Shown here one piece after another: positions 4,208-10,537 of a stretch of DNA of 11,454 nucleotides. The position numbers and the translations under genes were made by a program. The notes below the pieces were generated by a model. The model was given only the letters and a program-made list of their open reading frames with translations, was not told the DNA's origin and made no database searches. Each line of letters starts with the position of its first letter. Within the stretch, counting starts at the first letter, position 1. The DNA comes from a virus (taxonomy: Duplodnaviria; Heunggongvirae; Uroviricota; Caudoviricetes), in IMG/VR virus record IMGVR_UViG_2585427747_000005; one strand, 5' to 3'.

Positions 4208-4507
4208 ATGAAACTTAAATATTCTGGCTTAACTGCCAGTGGCAACACTCACCCTAAATTTACGCGCGGCGATATTTACCGCGACCAGTACGGCGGCACG
4301 GTAATGATTAAGGGCGTGGAAGAACGGCGCGTAACCTACCGCCGTGAAGGTTACGAATATGATTGCGTGATGCCTGTTTATCAGTTCCGGCGTGATTTTT
4401 CTCTGGTACAGACCGCGCCGCATAACGTGTCCACCAGCAACGCCAGGGCACGGGCAAACATCCAGAAGCTGAAAACCATGATTAACGGATTCAGGGGTAA
4501 AAAATGA
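4208..4507 (+). CDS. Hypothetical protein
   Basis: 99-aa ORF, GGAGA Shine-Dalgarno; stop overlaps the start of the replication gene (ATGA). Confidence 0.5.
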   Translation: MKLKYSGLTASGNTHPKFTRGDIYRDQYGGTVMIKGVEERRVTYRREGYEYDCVMPVYQFRRDFSLVQTAPHNVSTSNARARANIQKLKTMINGFRGKK

Positions 4508-6258
4508 AACTGGCACCGAACGTAAAACAGCAGTCACGCGGCATAAAACACAAAGAAACAGAAGTCATTATTTTTGCGGGTAGTGATGCCTGGTCACACG
4601 CAAAACAATGGCAGGAACATGACGCGCGTATGGCCGGAGATAATGAGCCTCCTGTGTGGCTTGGGGAGCAGCAGTTATCCGAACTGGATAAGCTGCAAAT
4701 TGTGCCGGAAGGCAGAAAATCCGTGCGCATATTCAGGGCCGGATATCTTGCGCCAGTAATGATAAAGGCGATTGGTCAGAAGCTGGCGGCGGCAGGCGTA
4801 CAGGATGCAAATTTTTACCCTGATGGTATGCACGGTCAGAAGGTGGAGAACTGGCGCGAATATCTGGCCCGTGAGCGCCAGAATCTTTCTGATGGTCTGG
4901 TCATTGAGCTTCCGGTAAAGCAAAAGGCGCAACTTTCGCAGATGGCGGACAGTGAGCGCGCGCAGCTGCTTGCCGATCGCTTTGATGGCGTTTGCGTACA
5001 TCCTGAAAGTGAAATCGTTCACGTATGGCGCGGCGGGGGATGGTGTCCGGTCAGCACAATGGAACTTAGCCGCGAAATGGTGGCGATCTATTCAGAGCAC
5101 AGGGCCACTTTCAGCAAGCGCGTAATCAATAACGCCGTGGAAGCGTTAAAAGTTATTGCCGAACCAATGGGCGAGCCGTCCGGCGATTTGTTGCCGTTCG
5201 CCAATGGTGCGCTTGACCTGAAAACGGGGGAATTTTCCCCGCACACGCCGGAGAACTGGATCACCACGCACAACGGCATTGAGTACACGCCACCAGCACC
5301 AGGGGAGAACATCCGCGATAACGCGCCAAACTTTCATAAATGGCTTGAGCACGCAGCCGGAAAAGACCCGCGCAAGATGATGCGTATATGTGCCGCGCTG
5401 TACATGATTATGGCGAACCGGTACGACTGGCAGATGTTTATTGAGGCCACCGGAGACGGCGGGAGCGGTAAAAGTACATTCACACACATAGCCAGCCTTC
5501 TGGCAGGGAAACAGAACACGGTAAGCGCTGAAATGACATCGCTTGATGATGCTGGTGGACGTGCGCAGGTTGTCGGGAGTCGTCTTATCGTCCTGGCTGA
5601 CCAGCCGAAATATACAGGCGAAGGAACGGGCATCAAGAAAATCACGGGCGGTGACCCCGTGGAAATTAACCCGAAATACGAAAAGCGTTTCACGGCGGTA
5701 ATCAGGGCGGTGGTGCTGGCGACCAACAATAACCCGATGATATTCACCGAACGGGCCGGAGGTGTGGCACGTCGTCGCGTGATTTTCCGTTTCGACAATA
5801 TCGTCAGTGAGGCCGAAAAAGACAGGGAGCTACCGGAAAAGATCGCGGCTGAAATCCCTGTCATTATCCGCCGATTGCTGGCGAACTTTACCGACCCTGA
5901 GAAGGCACGGGCTTTACTACTGGAACAGCGTGACGGTGATGAAGCTCTGGCAATAAAGCAACAGACGGATCCGGTTATTGAGTTTTGCCAGTTCCTGAAT
6001 TTTCTGGAGGAAGCGCGCGGCCTGATGATGGGGGGCGGTGGCGATTCAGTGAAGTACACGACCAGGAACAGCCTTTACCGCGTCTATCTGGCGTTTATGG
6101 CATACGCAGGCAGGAGCAAACCGCTAAACGTAAATGACTTTGGCAAGGCTATGAAGCCAGCCGCGAAAGTTTACGGACATGAATATATTACGCGGAAAGT
6201 TAAGGGAGTAACGCAGACTAACGCAATAACAACAGACGATTGCGACGCGTTTTTATAA
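4504..6258 (+). CDS. Replication initiator: P4-alpha-family primase C-terminal domain / SF3-type NTPase
   Basis: 584 aa; Walker A GDGGSGKST, Walker B-like RLIVLADQ, D5_N-like segment LPFANGALDLKTGEF; no obvious TOPRIM primase motif seen in the N-terminal third. Confidence 0.85.
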   Translation: MKLAPNVKQQSRGIKHKETEVIIFAGSDAWSHAKQWQEHDARMAGDNEPPVWLGEQQLSELDKLQIVPEGRKSVRIFRAGYLAPVMIKAIGQKLAAAGVQDANFYPDGMHGQKVENWREYLARERQNLSDGLVIELPVKQKAQLSQMADSERAQLLADRFDGVCVHPESEIVHVWRGGGWCPVSTMELSREMVAIYSEHRATFSKRVINNAVEALKVIAEPMGEPSGDLLPFANGALDLKTGEFSPHTPENWITTHNGIEYTPPAPGENIRDNAPNFHKWLEHAAGKDPRKMMRICAALYMIMANRYDWQMFIEATGDGGSGKSTFTHIASLLAGKQNTVSAEMTSLDDAGGRAQVVGSRLIVLADQPKYTGEGTGIKKITGGDPVEINPKYEKRFTAVIRAVVLATNNNPMIFTERAGGVARRRVIFRFDNIVSEAEKDRELPEKIAAEIPVIIRRLLANFTDPEKARALLLEQRDGDEALAIKQQTDPVIEFCQFLNFLEEARGLMMGGGGDSVKYTTRNSLYRVYLAFMAYAGRSKPLNVNDFGKAMKPAAKVYGHEYITRKVKGVTQTNAITTDDCDAFL

Positions 6259-6546: not shown

Positions 6547-6804
6547 ATGCGCACATCAGGAAAACTTAATAATCAGAAGAAGCAGCATAACCGCGCCATT
6601 GACCTTACAGAGCACTGGCTGAGAGTGGCGATAAAAATCATCGACCGCAACACGGGGGAAGGATACGCGAAAGCACATCCCGACCTGATAAGCGCATTCA
6701 TGACCACGGCGGCGGCAAACTTTGCCACGCTGACAGAACGGGAGATTGCCGAAGCGGAACAGGTAACAACCATCAACGTTAAAACCGGAGAGGTGGAATC
6801 ATGA
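6547..6804 (+). CDS. Hypothetical protein
   Basis: 85-aa ORF with a GAGGGGG Shine-Dalgarno; stop overlaps the SSB start (ATGA). Confidence 0.5.
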   Translation: MRTSGKLNNQKKQHNRAIDLTEHWLRVAIKIIDRNTGEGYAKAHPDLISAFMTTAAANFATLTEREIAEAEQVTTINVKTGEVES

Positions 6805-7223
6805 CAGCACAGATAGCAGCTTACGGGCGGCTGGTGGACGACCCGCAGGTAAAACAGACCAGCAAGGGCACACCAATGACGCTGGCACGTATGGCGGTCC
6901 CCCTTCCGTGCAGCCAGGCAGATGACGGAACGGCGACGATGTGGTTATCCGTCCTGGCATTTGGCAGACAGGCCGAAGCACTGGAAAGGCACCGCAAGGG
7001 TGAACTCCTGAGCGTGGCGGGTAACATGCAGATCAGCCAGTGGACTGGGCAGAACGGAGAAACGCGGCAGGGCTGGCAGGTTATCGCAGACAGTGTAATC
7101 AGTGCGCGAACGGCGCGACTGGGCGGCAAAAAAGGTCAACAGGGCCAGGCTACTGACGCGCTGAACAGGGCAAAACAACAGGCGGGGAATGATGATCCGT
7201 ACGGGGATAACATACCGTTTTAA
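6801..7223 (+). CDS. ssb: Single-stranded DNA-binding protein (SSB-like)
   Basis: 140 aa; OB-fold-like conserved positions (W..V.AFG..AE, RKG, W....G..R) and an acidic C-terminal tip DDPYGDNIPF resembling the E. coli SSB D-IPF tail. Confidence 0.75.
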   Translation: MTAQIAAYGRLVDDPQVKQTSKGTPMTLARMAVPLPCSQADDGTATMWLSVLAFGRQAEALERHRKGELLSVAGNMQISQWTGQNGETRQGWQVIADSVISARTARLGGKKGQQGQATDALNRAKQQAGNDDPYGDNIPF

Positions 7224-7261: not shown

Positions 7262-7325
7262 ACGGGGCCTCCTGGCGGGGTGGGCCTGAACACGGGGCGG
7301 GAGGCGCGGAAAAAAGCGCATTTTT
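7262..7325 (+). other. Degenerate cos-like repeat (diverged copy of the cosQ/cosN segment)
   Basis: ACGGGGCCTCCTGGCGGGGTGGGCCTGAACACGGGGCGGGAGGCGCGG aligns by eye with 9702-9755, but the cosN core is altered. Confidence 0.4.
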
Positions 7326-7441
7326 GTGATTTTATCGTCATCATCATCATGAGCGTAATTTATTGTTTTTAATTGTTTTGATGCAAAAAAGATGATGGTT
7401 ATGGTTAATTTTTGTTCGACATCTTTGCAGGCAGATAAAAA

Positions 7442-7478
7442 AGCCCGATAAGGTCAGAGGTGGCTTATCGGGCTTTTG
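7442..7478. terminator. 11-bp-stem hairpin flanked by A and T runs (possible bidirectional terminator)
   Basis: AGCCCGATAAG-gtcagaggtgg-CTTATCGGGCT then TTTT; A-run upstream. Confidence 0.4.
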
Positions 7479-7554
7479 CATATGAGGCTTTTTGGTGCAC
7501 TGACACACATGATCGGGATAATCATTTCATAATTTGCAACACAACTCAATATCA

Positions 7555-7603
7555 TTGCACAAAATGCAATCATGATTATAATCAGAGCTGGATGAACATC
7601 CAG
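7555..7603 (+). promoter_or_regulatory. Sigma70-like promoter for the head module, with overlapping palindromes
   Basis: -35 TTGCAC (7555-7560), 16-nt spacer, -10 TATAAT (7577-7582); ATTGCA-N5-TGCAAT (7554-7570) overlaps the -35; CTGGATG-aa-CATCCAG (7588-7603) sits at the predicted transcription start. Confidence 0.4.
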
Positions 7604-7638
7604 TTATGATTTTTTAAGTCGAAGAGGAATTTCTTACT

Positions 7639-7845
7639 ATGGCTGAAGAGAAAAAAGGCGGTGTTTCGGTGTACATAAGCCCCGAAATCGTGGAGGTGCT
7701 CAAGCAGCGCCACAAAAAAAACTATGAGGCTGGCGTGGCGGCTGGACTGGATCCGCTGATGACGCCGGAGCCGTCGATAGGTTCACTTGTACGCTCTTAT
7801 TTACTTGCGGCGCTTGGGATGCATAAAAATTATGGGGGTGAATAA
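7639..7845 (+). CDS. Hypothetical small protein upstream of the capsid gene
   Basis: 68-aa ORF; stop overlaps the capsid start (TAATG); possible strand-helix start (VSVYISPEIVEVLKQ). Confidence 0.5.
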   Translation: MAEEKKGGVSVYISPEIVEVLKQRHKKNYEAGVAAGLDPLMTPEPSIGSLVRSYLLAALGMHKNYGGE

Positions 7846-8900
7846 TGGCAGGCAAAGCAACGGCACTTAACACTCACCAGCTTTTTGCGTACCTGAATCG
7901 CGGGGATATTGCGGAATTTAAATTTAGTCCGCTGTTTACCACGCTGTTTTTCCCGAAAGTAGCGACATTCAACACCCAAAACATCATGCTGGATAACCTG
8001 GACACCGAAGAAGTCACTATGTCAGCGTTTTGCTCGCCTATGGTTGGTAGCCAGGTACAGCGCGATAAAGGGTACGAAACCAGCACGATTAAACCTGGCT
8101 ACATGAAGCCAAAGCACGAAATCGATCCAACAAAAACCATCATGCGCATGGCTGGAGAAGATCCGGCACAGCTTAACGACCCAACCTATCGCCGTATGCG
8201 CCTGATTACTGGCAACATGCGCCGCCAGGTAAACGCTATTAAAGCGCGTGTTGAATGGCTGGCGGTAAATGCGGTAACGACCGGAAAAAACATCATTGAG
8301 GGCGAAGGCATAGAACGCTATGAAATCGACTGGAAGATGCCGGAAAACAACATCATAGAGCAGGCCAAAGGCCGTAAATGGTCCGAGCAGGACAAAGAAA
8401 CCCACGATCCAATCTATGATATCGAGCTTTATGCGGATCAGGGCAATTGCCCCGCAAACGTCATGATTATGGGCGCTGAGGTATGGCGCACGTTACGCAG
8501 CTTTAAAAAATTCCGCGAACTGTACGATCTTTCCCGTGGTTCAGAATCCGCCGCAGAACTGGCCTGTAAAAACCTGGGCGAAGTGGTGAGCTTTAAAGGC
8601 TATCTGGGCGATATTGCCCTTATCGTCTATTCCGGCAAATACGCCGACAGCGACGGCACCGAAAAACATTTCCTTGAGCCTGATTTGCTGGTCTTGGGCA
8701 ACACCAACAATAAAGGGCTGGTTGCTTATGGTGCGATTATGGATCAGGAAGCGGTAAGAACGGGCGCAACGCAAAACATGTACTACCCGAAAAACTGGAT
8801 TGAGGACGGCGATCCGGCGATTGAGTACGTGCAGACGCACAGCGCACCGCAGCCGGTGCCGGCAGACATTCGCAAATTTGTTACCGTCAAAATTGGTTAA
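7845..8900 (+). CDS. Major capsid protein, lambda gpE family
   Basis: 351 aa; FKFSPLF..LFF, PGYMKPKHE, EDPAQLNDPTYRRMR, YPKNWIEDGDPAIEY..SAP match remembered lambda gpE segments (FKFDPLF..LFF, PGYVKPKHE, EDPQNLADPAYRRRR, YPKNWVTTGDPAREF..SAP). Confidence 0.9.
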   Translation: MAGKATALNTHQLFAYLNRGDIAEFKFSPLFTTLFFPKVATFNTQNIMLDNLDTEEVTMSAFCSPMVGSQVQRDKGYETSTIKPGYMKPKHEIDPTKTIMRMAGEDPAQLNDPTYRRMRLITGNMRRQVNAIKARVEWLAVNAVTTGKNIIEGEGIERYEIDWKMPENNIIEQAKGRKWSEQDKETHDPIYDIELYADQGNCPANVMIMGAEVWRTLRSFKKFRELYDLSRGSESAAELACKNLGEVVSFKGYLGDIALIVYSGKYADSDGTEKHFLEPDLLVLGNTNNKGLVAYGAIMDQEAVRTGATQNMYYPKNWIEDGDPAIEYVQTHSAPQPVPADIRKFVTVKIG

Positions 8901-8911
8901 CGGGGGATTCT

Positions 8912-9247
8912 ATGAACACTCCATACATTGAGTTATTTGCAGGCAGTCAGCAGGTATCCACGACGCTGGTACATTTTGCCGCTGATGCTGGCGTCATTCA
9001 GGAATTTACCCCGCTGATGCTGGCGGACAATGGCGAGTTTAAGCCGTGGGATGGTCAGGCGTCCGGAAAGGCTGTTTATCTGACTTCGTACCCCGTGGAC
9101 ACGTCAAAGCAGAAATCAGCACAGTGCTACAAGACGGGGATCTTTAATATCGCCGCCGTGAACTGGCCCGAGAGCGTCGACACCGATGCGAAAAAATGCG
9201 CCGCCTTTGCGGGTTCTGGCGTATCCGTTCAGCCGCTGGCCCGATAA
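8912..9247 (+). CDS. Head decoration protein, lambda gpD family
   Basis: 111 aa; TPLMLADNG..WDGQASGKAV...YKTGIFN..WPE...KKCAAFAGSGVSV parallels lambda gpD TPLMLDTSS..WDGTTDGAAV...YKSGTFR..WPE...KKRTAFAGTAISIV. Confidence 0.85.
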   Translation: MNTPYIELFAGSQQVSTTLVHFAADAGVIQEFTPLMLADNGEFKPWDGQASGKAVYLTSYPVDTSKQKSAQCYKTGIFNIAAVNWPESVDTDAKKCAAFAGSGVSVQPLAR

Positions 9248-9259
9248 GCAGGGGGAACG

Positions 9260-9673
9260 ATGGCAACGAATGAAAGCATCATGACGCTACCGCTGGCGAG
9301 TAAATTTAAAGCCGAAGCGCGGGCAATGGCTGACAGAGGTTTATCAACCTACGAGGCCGTATATCAACTCAACAAACTGGAAGAGCAGGACAAGCCGCGC
9401 GCTGATGCGATTATGGCGCTTCATGAGCATAACGACTATCAGCCGCTGTTACGTGCAATGGCAAACGTGCCTTGTATCGATGTTGGTACGGCTAAAAGCA
9501 TCCTTAGCATGACCATAGAGCAGGAACGCCAGAAGGTTGCGCCGGAGCTTACCGCAGCCTTTGAAAACTTTATGGACATGCACAGCCCGCAAGCCGTTTC
9601 AGCTGGCATGGCATACGACGGCAGAAACCCGGGCGATGATGGCGACATCGAGCGCATACTGAAAACCATCTGA
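9260..9673 (+). CDS. Hypothetical protein, last gene of the head-module operon
   Basis: 137-aa ORF with an AGGGGG Shine-Dalgarno; acidic and helical-looking; no confident homolog recognised. Confidence 0.55.
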   Translation: MATNESIMTLPLASKFKAEARAMADRGLSTYEAVYQLNKLEEQDKPRADAIMALHEHNDYQPLLRAMANVPCIDVGTAKSILSMTIEQERQKVAPELTAAFENFMDMHSPQAVSAGMAYDGRNPGDDGDIERILKTI

Positions 9674-9679
9674 GACAAG

Positions 9680-9702
9680 GCCGGAGAAATCCGGCTTTTT
9701 TT
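9680..9702 (+). terminator. Rho-independent terminator
   Basis: GCCGGA-gaaa-TCCGGC followed by 7 T; near-identical to the hairpin at 7240-7255. Confidence 0.7.
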
Positions 9703-9770
9703 ACGGGTCCTTTCCGGCATATGGACCCGTTACGGGGCGGCGACCTCGCGGGTTTTCGCTATTTATGACG
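9703..9770 (+). other. cos: Lambda-type cos site (cosQ-like segment plus cosN GGGCGGCGACCT at 9735-9746)
   Basis: ACGGGTCCTTTCCGG...CCGTTACG|GGGCGGCGACCT|CGCGGGTTTTCGCTATTTATGA matches remembered lambda cos flanks, diverging only in the cosQ-cosN spacer. Confidence 0.8.
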
Positions 9771-9835: not shown

Positions 9836-10276
9836 ATGATTGATAAAGCTTGTTTTGTAAGTCAGCAGGAAATAGCTGAACATTTCAAGGTTAACAGAAC
9901 CACTATTCGCGCATGGACCAAACAGGGGATGCCGTATCTTAATGCGGATCGCGGAAAGTCTGGCGGTTATCACATCGGGCATACATTGCTTTGGTCTTCA
10001 GGTAAAAGCCGTCTTGAGGCCATCAGATATCACGTAGAAACCAGTGCGCTGGAAAAAATTATGTTTGCCAGGCTGCTTTCATCTGAGCGTGACGAGTACT
10101 CCAGTGAAGAAACAGAACATAGATTTGATGAAGGTTTACAGATTTACGGCTACTCACCGGAAGAAGTGAGCAAAGCGCGAAATAAAATGGCCGGCTTTCT
10201 GGCTGGGTGGCGTCATGCCGTAAGCGTTCGCCGTGCCAGCATGGAACAATCAGTCGTTACAGAACAGCAAAGTTAA
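9836..10276 (+). CDS. Terminase small subunit homolog (lambda Nu1-like wHTH); Rpp-like packaging-redirection candidate
   Basis: 146 aa; VSQQEIAEHFKVNRTTIRAWTKQGMPYL parallels lambda Nu1 KKQLADIFGASIRTIQNWQEQGMPVL; no large terminase gene in the window. Confidence 0.8.
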   Translation: MIDKACFVSQQEIAEHFKVNRTTIRAWTKQGMPYLNADRGKSGGYHIGHTLLWSSGKSRLEAIRYHVETSALEKIMFARLLSSERDEYSSEETEHRFDEGLQIYGYSPEEVSKARNKMAGFLAGWRHAVSVRRASMEQSVVTEQQS

Positions 10277-10469: not shown

Positions 10470-10537
10470 GCTCATAAATAGCGAAAAACCGCGAGGTCGC
10501 CGCCCCGTAACGGGCCATAATTCCAGGAAGGACCCGA
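10470..10537 (-). other. cos: Second cos copy in inverted orientation (cosN GGGCGGCGACCT on the minus strand, 10494-10505)
   Basis: Reverse complement reads CGGGTCCTTCCTGG...CCGTTACG|GGGCGGCGACCT|CGCGGTTTTTCGCTATTTATGAG, an imperfect inverted repeat of 9703-9770. Confidence 0.7.

Follow-up and report, generated by a model that had tools for sequence, protein, structure and literature searches.

A candidate LexA box and a putative operator pair for a second regulator at the head-operon promoter of a Gram-negative phage satellite

The question raised by this locus is which signal turns on the head genes of a phage satellite. The E. coli DNA considered here (IMG/VR record IMGVR_UViG_2585427747_000005, 11.4 kb, called the window in what follows) is, by its gene content, a chromosomal phage satellite, a Gram-negative phage-inducible chromosomal island (PICI) of the EcCICFT073 type. 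Its capsid gene belongs to a short operon. The original prediction wrapped the promoter of this operon in two palindromes and proposed that the capsid genes are repressed until a helper signal arrives. The promoter and the palindromes are found as described and the elements look like those of a repressed promoter, so that repression is a reasonable part of that proposal, but the helper signal is not supported: the palindrome at the predicted start site is best read as a box for the host repressor LexA, and the cue for the head operon is probably the host SOS response rather than a helper-phage protein. We infer LexA binding, repression, the start site and the identity of a second regulator from the sequence.

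The head promoter and its start-site palindrome

We consider the promoter before its operators. The region 7521-7615 is probably a regulated sigma-70 promoter of the short head operon (7589 to about 9702). It lies between a strong terminator (7439-7478) and the small open reading frame (ORF) and capsid genes, the place expected of a head-module promoter, and its -10 and the TTGC of its -35 are conserved in every relative. The -10 TATAAT (7577-7582, plus strand) is an exact consensus (6/6), invariant in one class of relatives (class A below) and replaced by TAAAAT in the other (class B). The -35 TTGCAC (7555-7560, plus strand), 16 nt away, shares only its TTG with TTGACA (3/6), and this TTG is kept in relatives. 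The locus thus has the hexamers, the spacer of 16-18 nt and the conservation in orthologues by which a sigma-70 promoter is recognized, and the architecture TTGCnn-16 nt-TA(T/A)AAT is retained in the E. coli, Salmonella-type and L120 lineages. Transcription is predicted to start at about 7589. Because the -35 is only 3/6, a consensus promoter scan misses this promoter; the scan calls TTCATA-18-TATCAT, an alternative that we rejected since its TATCAT is unconserved in relatives. A sigma-54 promoter (-24/-12) was rejected by eye, with TG in place of GG and a spacing 2 nt short.

The two palindromes are different symmetric elements that overlap the promoter in repressor-like positions, as had been proposed. 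Palindrome 1, ATTGCA-N5-TGCAAT, has its arms at 7554-7559 and 7565-7570. Palindrome 2, CTGGATG-aa-CATCCAG, has its arms at 7588-7594 and 7597-7603, or about -2 to +15 if +1 is near 7589. An inverted-repeat tool finds both and extends them, to 7551-7559/7565-7573 (8/9 paired) and to 7580-7594/7597-7611 (13/15). Counting perfect palindromes with arms of 7 nt or more and spacers of no more than 6 nt, the window has 13, against 5.5 +/- 2.6 in Markov-simulated sequence, and such palindromes are common enough by themselves. That these two exceed chance follows from the LexA-box score of palindrome 2, the second copy of palindrome 1 and the conservation in more than 100 related loci.

What does the palindrome at the start site resemble? 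Its 16-bp core, CTGGATGAACATCCAG at 7588-7603, is a CTG-N10-CAG, the core of the LexA consensus TACTG(TA)5CAGTA, and the complete candidate LexA (SOS) box is AGCTGGATGAACATCCAGTT (7586-7605). Table 4 of PMC3009722 lists 18 E. coli LexA boxes, and from these we rebuilt a heterology index (HI) matrix, which is not the original Lewis 1994 matrix. With it this 20-mer has an HI of 8.7 (plus strand) and 8.1 (minus strand). The leave-one-out HI of the 18 published boxes runs from 0.6 to 12.8 (ruvA 8.5, uvrB 9.1), and 7586-7605 falls inside this range. The core shares 12 of its 16 bases with the ruvA box CGCTGGATATCTATCCAGCA, the arms CTGGAT...ATCCAG being identical. Markov-simulated DNA yields about 0.0007 sites per kb with an HI of 8.7 or less, and random palindromes of the 7-2-7 layout attain the score of 7586-7605 at a frequency of 2e-4. 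As a positive control, the umuD box is recovered with an HI of 0.3 from 116.6 kb of real E. coli DNA. The box begins 3 nt downstream of the conserved TATAAT and would cover -3 to +17 of the predicted start; in genes under tight LexA control the box typically overlaps the start site (PMC8072944).

Other CTG-N10-CAG sites in the window score poorly, those of the int-alpA spacer excepted. The LexA-like sites in that spacer (1247-1266 and 1358-1377) are TACTGGATATGCGAACAGAT, with an HI of 11.6, and TAGTGTACAAAAAACCAGTA on the minus strand, with an HI of 7.4 and GTG for CTG. In another island (L001, 3425-3444) the spacer between int and a helix-turn-helix (HTH) gene holds the LexA-like CAGTGTATAAAAAAACAGTA (HI 5.7). 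A second LexA box overlapping the one at the head promoter, as in colicin promoters, was looked for and none was found.

A further argument comes from the way in which the box varies. Relatives were collected by BLAST against complete E. coli genomes, from homologues of the small ORF together with their contigs, and by pattern scans of viral contigs and of metagenomes. The BLAST search finds the promoter in 601 of 5,426 complete E. coli genomes, O157:H7 and ATCC 25922 among them (the promoter of ATCC 25922, L010, shares 98% identity), and most homologues are more than 90% identical overall. The promoters fall into two classes, class A with the -10 TATAAT and class B with TAAAAT. Salmonella-type loci, with a small protein sharing only 51-56% identity with that of the window, belong to class A. 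Class A always carries the box, with an HI of 5.2-9.2, the sole exception being one contig with a 1-nt insertion; boxes in this HI range are kept in 57 of 66 distinct viral-contig or genome variants and in all class A metagenome variants. Six variants of the core are seen, CTGGAT[G/A][AA/TT][C/A]AT[C/A]CAG, and CTG and CAG are kept in all of them. Three substitutions recur (G7594A, C7597A and C7600A), each disrupting a hairpin pair without compensation, and two of them, G7594A and C7600A, approach the LexA consensus. Against the Salmonella-type loci the box core matches at 15/16 positions and is the best-conserved segment; the promoter/operator block is 83-84% identical, the small ORF 63-65% and the capsid gene, at its start, 68-73%, and of the 3 nt that link -10 and box none match (0/3). 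Among about 60 unrelated metagenomic chance matches to the pattern, no downstream site had both an HI below about 9 and the CTG/CAG core. Judged from these alignments, the variation in the box is the signature of a selected protein-binding site with LexA specificity. Two further scans of genome contigs added nothing: one with the back-translated capsid protein gave no confirmed relative, and one with the DNA pattern gave only chance matches in unrelated taxa.

Several observations weigh against LexA control. The HI is mid-range, so the operator would be a moderate one. Class B, L120 and L123 are entirely without a LexA box, which means that LexA control is not essential to the head operon. In the 116.6 kb of real E. 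coli DNA there are two unexplained sites with HI of 8.7 or less, and the false-positive rate in real DNA may be nearer 0.02 than 0.0007 per kb. The box is surrounded by an extended palindrome and a T-run that LexA leaves unexplained, and a few outer pairs of this palindrome seem compensatory in relatives (7585/7606 as G-C in L040, GGA/TCC in L030). Finally, alpA expression in such islands is helper-dependent and not SOS-dependent (PMC6092414, PMC11773190), albeit from a different promoter. Even at 0.02 per kb, a chance LexA-like site within these 100 nt and exactly at the start point is unlikely, and we consider that the LexA box of the head promoter is probably functional. The two unexplained sites, both in E. 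coli CFT073 (L119), lie in the minC-ycgJ intergenic region (20336-20355, HI 7.6) and inside ycgM (22218-22237, HI 8.6); either the matrix has called them falsely or they are LexA sites that had escaped recognition.

Could palindrome 2 instead be mainly a nucleic-acid structure, a terminator or insulator hairpin in read-through RNA or a 5' stem-loop, with its likeness to a LexA box secondary? The extended palindrome (7580-7594/7597-7611) and the T-run at 7610-7615 do form a terminator-like unit on the plus strand (7580-7615): a terminator scan flags 7586-7605 followed by ATGATTTTTT, RNA from 7572-7622 folds at -14.6 kcal/mol (z -3.9), and the commonest variant, a perfect 15+15 palindrome, has a folding free energy (dG) of -19.8 kcal/mol as RNA. 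Conservation extends to the outer arm ATGATT and the T-run, in the Salmonella-type loci even across an indel, and the pairs 7585/7606 and 7586/7605 are possibly compensatory. The inner stem tells otherwise, as the three recurrent substitutions break its pairs uncompensated and a hairpin with an arbitrary sequence has only about a 2e-4 chance of matching the LexA matrix. The inner hairpin lies 6 nt from the U-run, an AU-rich base of the stem is poor for termination, and a far stronger terminator already stands 100 nt upstream. As a terminator the element would act on read-through RNA only: RNA begun at the predicted +1 is without the left outer arm and folds weakly (-5.0 kcal/mol). We therefore regard a primarily structural role as unlikely. 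A hairpin is compatible with LexA binding in any case, and we treat the extended palindrome as a secondary layer that does not conflict with it; the 32-bp palindrome might add a structural hairpin layer to the LexA site. No promoter with a conserved -10 was found upstream of the 7580-7611 hairpin, and an Rfam search of 7300-7900 gave nothing meaningful. Antitermination was considered as well. A lambda Q-type cassette does not describe the locus, whose lone terminator-like hairpin starts upstream of the predicted +1 and so lies outside the transcript, and AlpA-type antitermination was rejected for its unsuitable geometry.

The helper signal of the original prediction has its own case. Both palindromes would be operators of island or helper regulators, the head genes would stay off until a helper product appears, and the LexA likeness would be coincidental. 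Both elements do occupy repressor-like promoter positions, Gram-negative PICIs are induced through helper-dependent alpA expression (PMC6092414), and the extended palindrome exceeds a LexA site in size. Yet the LexA match is specific, with arms identical to those of ruvA, and improbable by chance, the variation of palindrome 2 obeys LexA rules, and elsewhere in the window there is neither a second copy of palindrome 2 nor a candidate protein to bind it. We consider this explanation very unlikely and retain LexA as the regulator at the start site.

The paired dyads and the small first gene

We turn to palindrome 1, which has a twin. The 19-nt direct repeats ATCATTTCATAATTTGCAA (7521-7539) and ATCATTGCACAAAATGCAA (7551-7569) lie 30 nt apart and are 79% identical. 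The first is the distal operator unit, whose dyad TTTCA-N5-TGCAA (7525-7539, centred at about -57) is one mismatch away from TTGCA-N5-TGCAA. The proximal operator, ATCATTGCA-CAAAA-TGCAATCAT (7551-7573, core 7555-7569, centred at about -27), also fits this motif and spans the -35 and most of the spacer. The block 7521-7584, with the distal unit included, is nearly invariant in 69 distinct homologous sequences. Class B retains it as well, and so do the Salmonella-type loci except for a degenerate distal arm. Relatives that were found by BLAST or protein homology, independently of the search pattern, also conserve TTGC and AAAATGCAA.

The pair itself recurs, 30-32 nt apart, in front of small-ORF homologues in E. 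coli classes A and B, L120 and L123. In L120 the dyads are perfect (ATTGCA-CTTTA-TGCAAT and GTTGCA-TGTTA-TGCAAT, 32 nt apart), their centres differ, and the same -35/16 nt/-10 arrangement follows. L123 has two dyads 30 nt apart upstream of its small-ORF homologue, with different genes downstream; since the dyads persist there despite the other genes, the small-ORF family is their sole constant partner. In the Salmonella-type loci a scan allowing at most one mismatch yields the proximal dyad only, the distal arm reading TTTCA-N5-TACAA. Because the pair recurs before the small-ORF family in five lineages, the dyads are, as far as comparison of these loci can tell, an operator pair for a second regulator.

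Might the dyads have no regulator at all, their conservation reflecting the -35 and the recent common ancestry of a promoter cassette? The left arm of palindrome 1 is indeed the -35, and the high overall identity of most homologues noted above fits recent ancestry. This explanation fits poorly with the right arm, which lies in the spacer and is invariant in independently found relatives whose adjacent genes are only 61-74% identical, and with the second copy, which stands 30-32 nt upstream in five lineages; in L120 both dyads are perfect while their central bases differ. We find it hardly credible.

A host protein is another candidate, in that the dyads could be CytR operators that tie the head genes to nucleoside and cyclic AMP physiology. 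The motifs of CytR are TGCAA-N2-3-TTGCA, TTGCAA or GTTGCATT octamers, inverted or direct and with flexible spacing that includes 10-13 nt (PMC3454398). The window has four pentamers of this kind (7525, 7535, 7555 and 7565), repeated as CytR sites are, TGCAAC-N13-ATTGCA (7535-7559) belongs to the published long-spacer class, and variants exist with an exact GTTGCATT on the lower strand. However, a CytR operator normally has CRP sites on its flanks, and the protein alone binds weakly (PMC3454398), and the best matches to TGTGA-N6-TCACA here have 3/10 mismatches and lie in unconserved DNA. TTGCA...TGCAA with 5 nt between the arms is also everted relative to the optimum from systematic evolution of ligands by exponential enrichment (SELEX), and the dyad pair accompanies the small-ORF family also in the different gene context of L123, for which an element-encoded partner fits better. 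CytR control is thus quite improbable. Among phage-type sites, lambda CII sites (TTGC-N6-TTGC) were rejected because the repeat is inverted and off by one, and lambda-type CI/Cro operators because the spacing is wrong, in spite of the half-site likeness ATCAYYGCA. An enrichment of ATCAT/ATGAT heptads, as for an omega-like repressor, is not significant against local composition (1734/20000 simulations).

An operator pair for a second regulator remains the preferred description of the dyads, and the claim that a different regulator is implied here holds for palindrome 1 and its upstream twin, though not for palindrome 2 if it is a host LexA box. As had also been claimed, these operators are unlike the GTGTT-N-AACAC repeats, of which three copies (GTGTTCAACAC, GTGTTTAACAC and GTGTTCAACAC) lie at 2503-2554, against 0.15 expected.

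Who binds the dyads? We tentatively propose the small ORF itself (7639-7845, plus strand; phrog_3255), the first gene of the head operon, whose 68-aa product would be a ribbon-helix-helix (RHH)-like autoregulator. Its Shine-Dalgarno region AAGAGGAA (7622-7629, plus strand) contains an AGAGGA block that is invariant in all lineages. The family is narrow, with 16 representatives among 1.8 billion proteins. In the protein, the N-terminal GGVSVYISPEIVEVLKQ looks like an RHH beta-strand with the helix that follows it, and PSIGxxVRSYLxAAL like the second helix. The AlphaFold2 (AF2) monomer has a predicted local distance difference test (pLDDT) score of 70, with an extended N-terminus and helices at 15-34 and 47-59. 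The Pfam matches to RHH_1 and BrnA_antitoxin are below threshold (E 0.12-0.15) and come from one homologue only, and profile searches of the PDB with the small protein gave no RHH match. A Foldseek search and an NCBIfam search with it returned nothing, and tblastn of the small ORF against a phage collection gave no match. AlpA or a helper protein could also be the dyad binder.

Combining the two elements, we favour the following switch. In undamaged cells a LexA dimer on 7586-7605 would block open-complex formation or promoter escape. On SOS induction, RecA*-stimulated cleavage of LexA would free the head promoter with no helper product needed. The same RecA*-stimulated event that cleaves LexA also induces lambdoid helper prophages. 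A second dimeric regulator would bind both dyads cooperatively and repress, the proximal dyad covering the -35 and spacer, and this regulator may be the small RHH-like protein, which would then regulate its own operon. The full combination, LexA at the start site and an island-encoded RHH-like autorepressor on the two dyads, is a speculative proposal that we hold with considerable doubt. As alpA is helper-dependent and the head promoter carries a candidate LexA box, the island would have one helper-gated switch and one SOS-gated operon.

The island around the promoter

The promoter serves a four-gene head operon, because terminators bound this unit on both sides. Upstream, the intrinsic terminator at 7439-7478 (plus strand; RNA fold of -23.4 kcal/mol, z -5.5, then a U-run) closes the replication/ssb module. 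After the small ORF come, all on the plus strand, the lambda E-type capsid homologue (capsid E, 7845-8900; Pfam Phage_cap_E 4e-50 and a PHROG match), a lambda D-like decoration protein (8912-9247; Pfam HDPD 6e-18 and a PHROG match) and a further ORF (9260-9673). The operon ends at an intrinsic terminator read off the sequence, GCCGGA-gaaa-TCCGGC followed by T7 (9680-9702, plus strand).

The remainder of the window has an integrase (1-1218), an AlpA-like ORF (about 1585-1772, read off the sequence with no family search), a gene for a DUF4222 protein ahead of that for a D5-type primase (4504-6258), a single-stranded DNA-binding protein (SSB, 6801-7223) and, as a separate unit beyond the 9680-9702 terminator, a cos-like site and the gene of an Rpp-like HTH protein (9836-10276). 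These are the features of an EcCICFT073-type island (int, alpA, pri-rep, late capsid and decoration genes, cos and rpp, in one direction, on about 10-12 kb of chromosome). The published organisation of EcCICFT073 is the same, with c1499 and c1500 as the capsid and decoration homologues and c1503 as rpp (PMC6092414, PMC6739421). In CFT073 1.395-1.493 Mb we found a lambdoid prophage and core genes only, and the EcCICFT073 model island was not located there.

Just upstream of the Rpp-like gene, GGGCGGCGACCT at 9735-9746 is followed by CGCGGGTTTTCGCTATTTATGA (flanks to about 9770). Together they match the cosN region of phage lambda at its left cohesive end. An inverted second copy of CGGGGCGGCGACCTCG lies about 750 nt downstream, on the minus strand at 10492-10507. 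The Rpp-like protein has a weak match to a BldC-family HTH (NCBIfam E 0.003) and a PHROG match to small terminases, and these agree with the published similarity of RppC to BldC/MerR (PMC6739421). Between int and alpA, the short direct repeats GCAACAATG, GCAACAATG, GGAACAAC and CGAACAAG (1268-1312) recur about every 10-11 nt, perhaps as binding sites of the arm type, for AlpA or for integrase.

An island between roxA and phoQ in E. coli 2017C-4173W12 shares the late region of the window at 100% identity but has a different left half, so these islands are mosaic. Many E. coli islands are homologous to the window only from about 7437, at the terminator, rightwards, and in the best overall match (L001) a RepA-type helicase replaces the D5-type primase. 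Because homology starts at about 7437 and the replication genes differ, the head module with its terminator and promoter appears as an exchangeable cassette. In many variants (L004, L005, L006, L009 and L015-L018) a PerC-family regulator gene directly precedes the terminator and head promoter; the window has no such gene at this place.

Relation to known switches

Is there precedent for such an arrangement? As far as its sequence goes, the head promoter is a putative LexA-regulated mobile-element promoter of a known kind with an additional operator pair. Its box is closest to the E. coli ruvAB SOS box, with the same arms and a similar HI (8.5 leave-one-out against 8.1-8.7 here). The central four bases are GAAC here and ATCT there, the flanks differ, and the present site is at the start point of a mobile-element promoter, inside a 32-bp palindrome.

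Host LexA boxes on the promoters of mobile elements link their genes to the SOS response in other systems too. The tum gene of coliphage 186 is a LexA-gated switch of a temperate element. PMC8072944, where Lemire 2011 is cited, describes the dinI homologues of Salmonella Gifsy prophages as LexA-regulated. Those two cases concern antirepressors or early genes that trigger induction, whereas the genes here are satellite head-gene homologues and would not alone induce the island.

The nearest parallel is found in the pathogenicity islands of Staphylococcus aureus (SaPIs), whose operon I, a packaging and capsid-morphogenesis module, is described as LexA-controlled in PMC5052747, which cites Ubeda 2007. 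Both are late, capsid-related operons of a satellite, downstream of the replication module and with their own promoter and LexA operator, and both are SOS-inducible apart from a helper-dependent master switch, which for the present island is a prediction. The parts differ: a gamma-proteobacterial CTG-N10-CAG box here and a Gram-positive LexA motif there, lambda E/D homologues here and the unrelated genes cpmAB/terS/pti there, activation by AlpA as the master switch here and repression by Stl there. The dual-dyad operator is extra, and the LexA control is predicted here and absent in some lineages. LexA control of the head operon would be convergent with that of SaPI operon I, in an unrelated satellite family.

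For the dyads the comparison is with Arc and Mnt. These proteins of P22 immI exemplify RHH-type autoregulation of phage operons. The likeness lies in a small first gene with a beta-strand/helix N-terminus, in dyads that overlap the gene's own promoter and in half-site centres about 10 bp apart. The differences are that the RHH fold is only a candidate here, with helix A and the A-B loop longer than canonical, and that there are two operators 30 nt apart instead of one.

In the literature searched we found no report of LexA at the late operon of a Gram-negative PICI, or of a repressor on its late region. To our knowledge, regulation in Gram-negative PICIs is known only at the alpA switch, and these islands are thought to lack a repressor. 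If the full combination is true, the 68-aa autorepressor would be the first repressor identified in Gram-negative PICIs. With a LexA box on the head operon, DNA-damaging antibiotics would switch on the capsid-gene homologues of a satellite even without a helper, and SaPI operon I would have a concrete counterpart here. In EcCICFT073 the homologues of the capsid and decoration genes are dispensable for transfer and interference (PMC6092414). If LexA control holds, lexA alleles and box mutations would be a simple handle on the role of these dispensable genes, and the dyad pair would offer a second testable operator together with a candidate small regulator.

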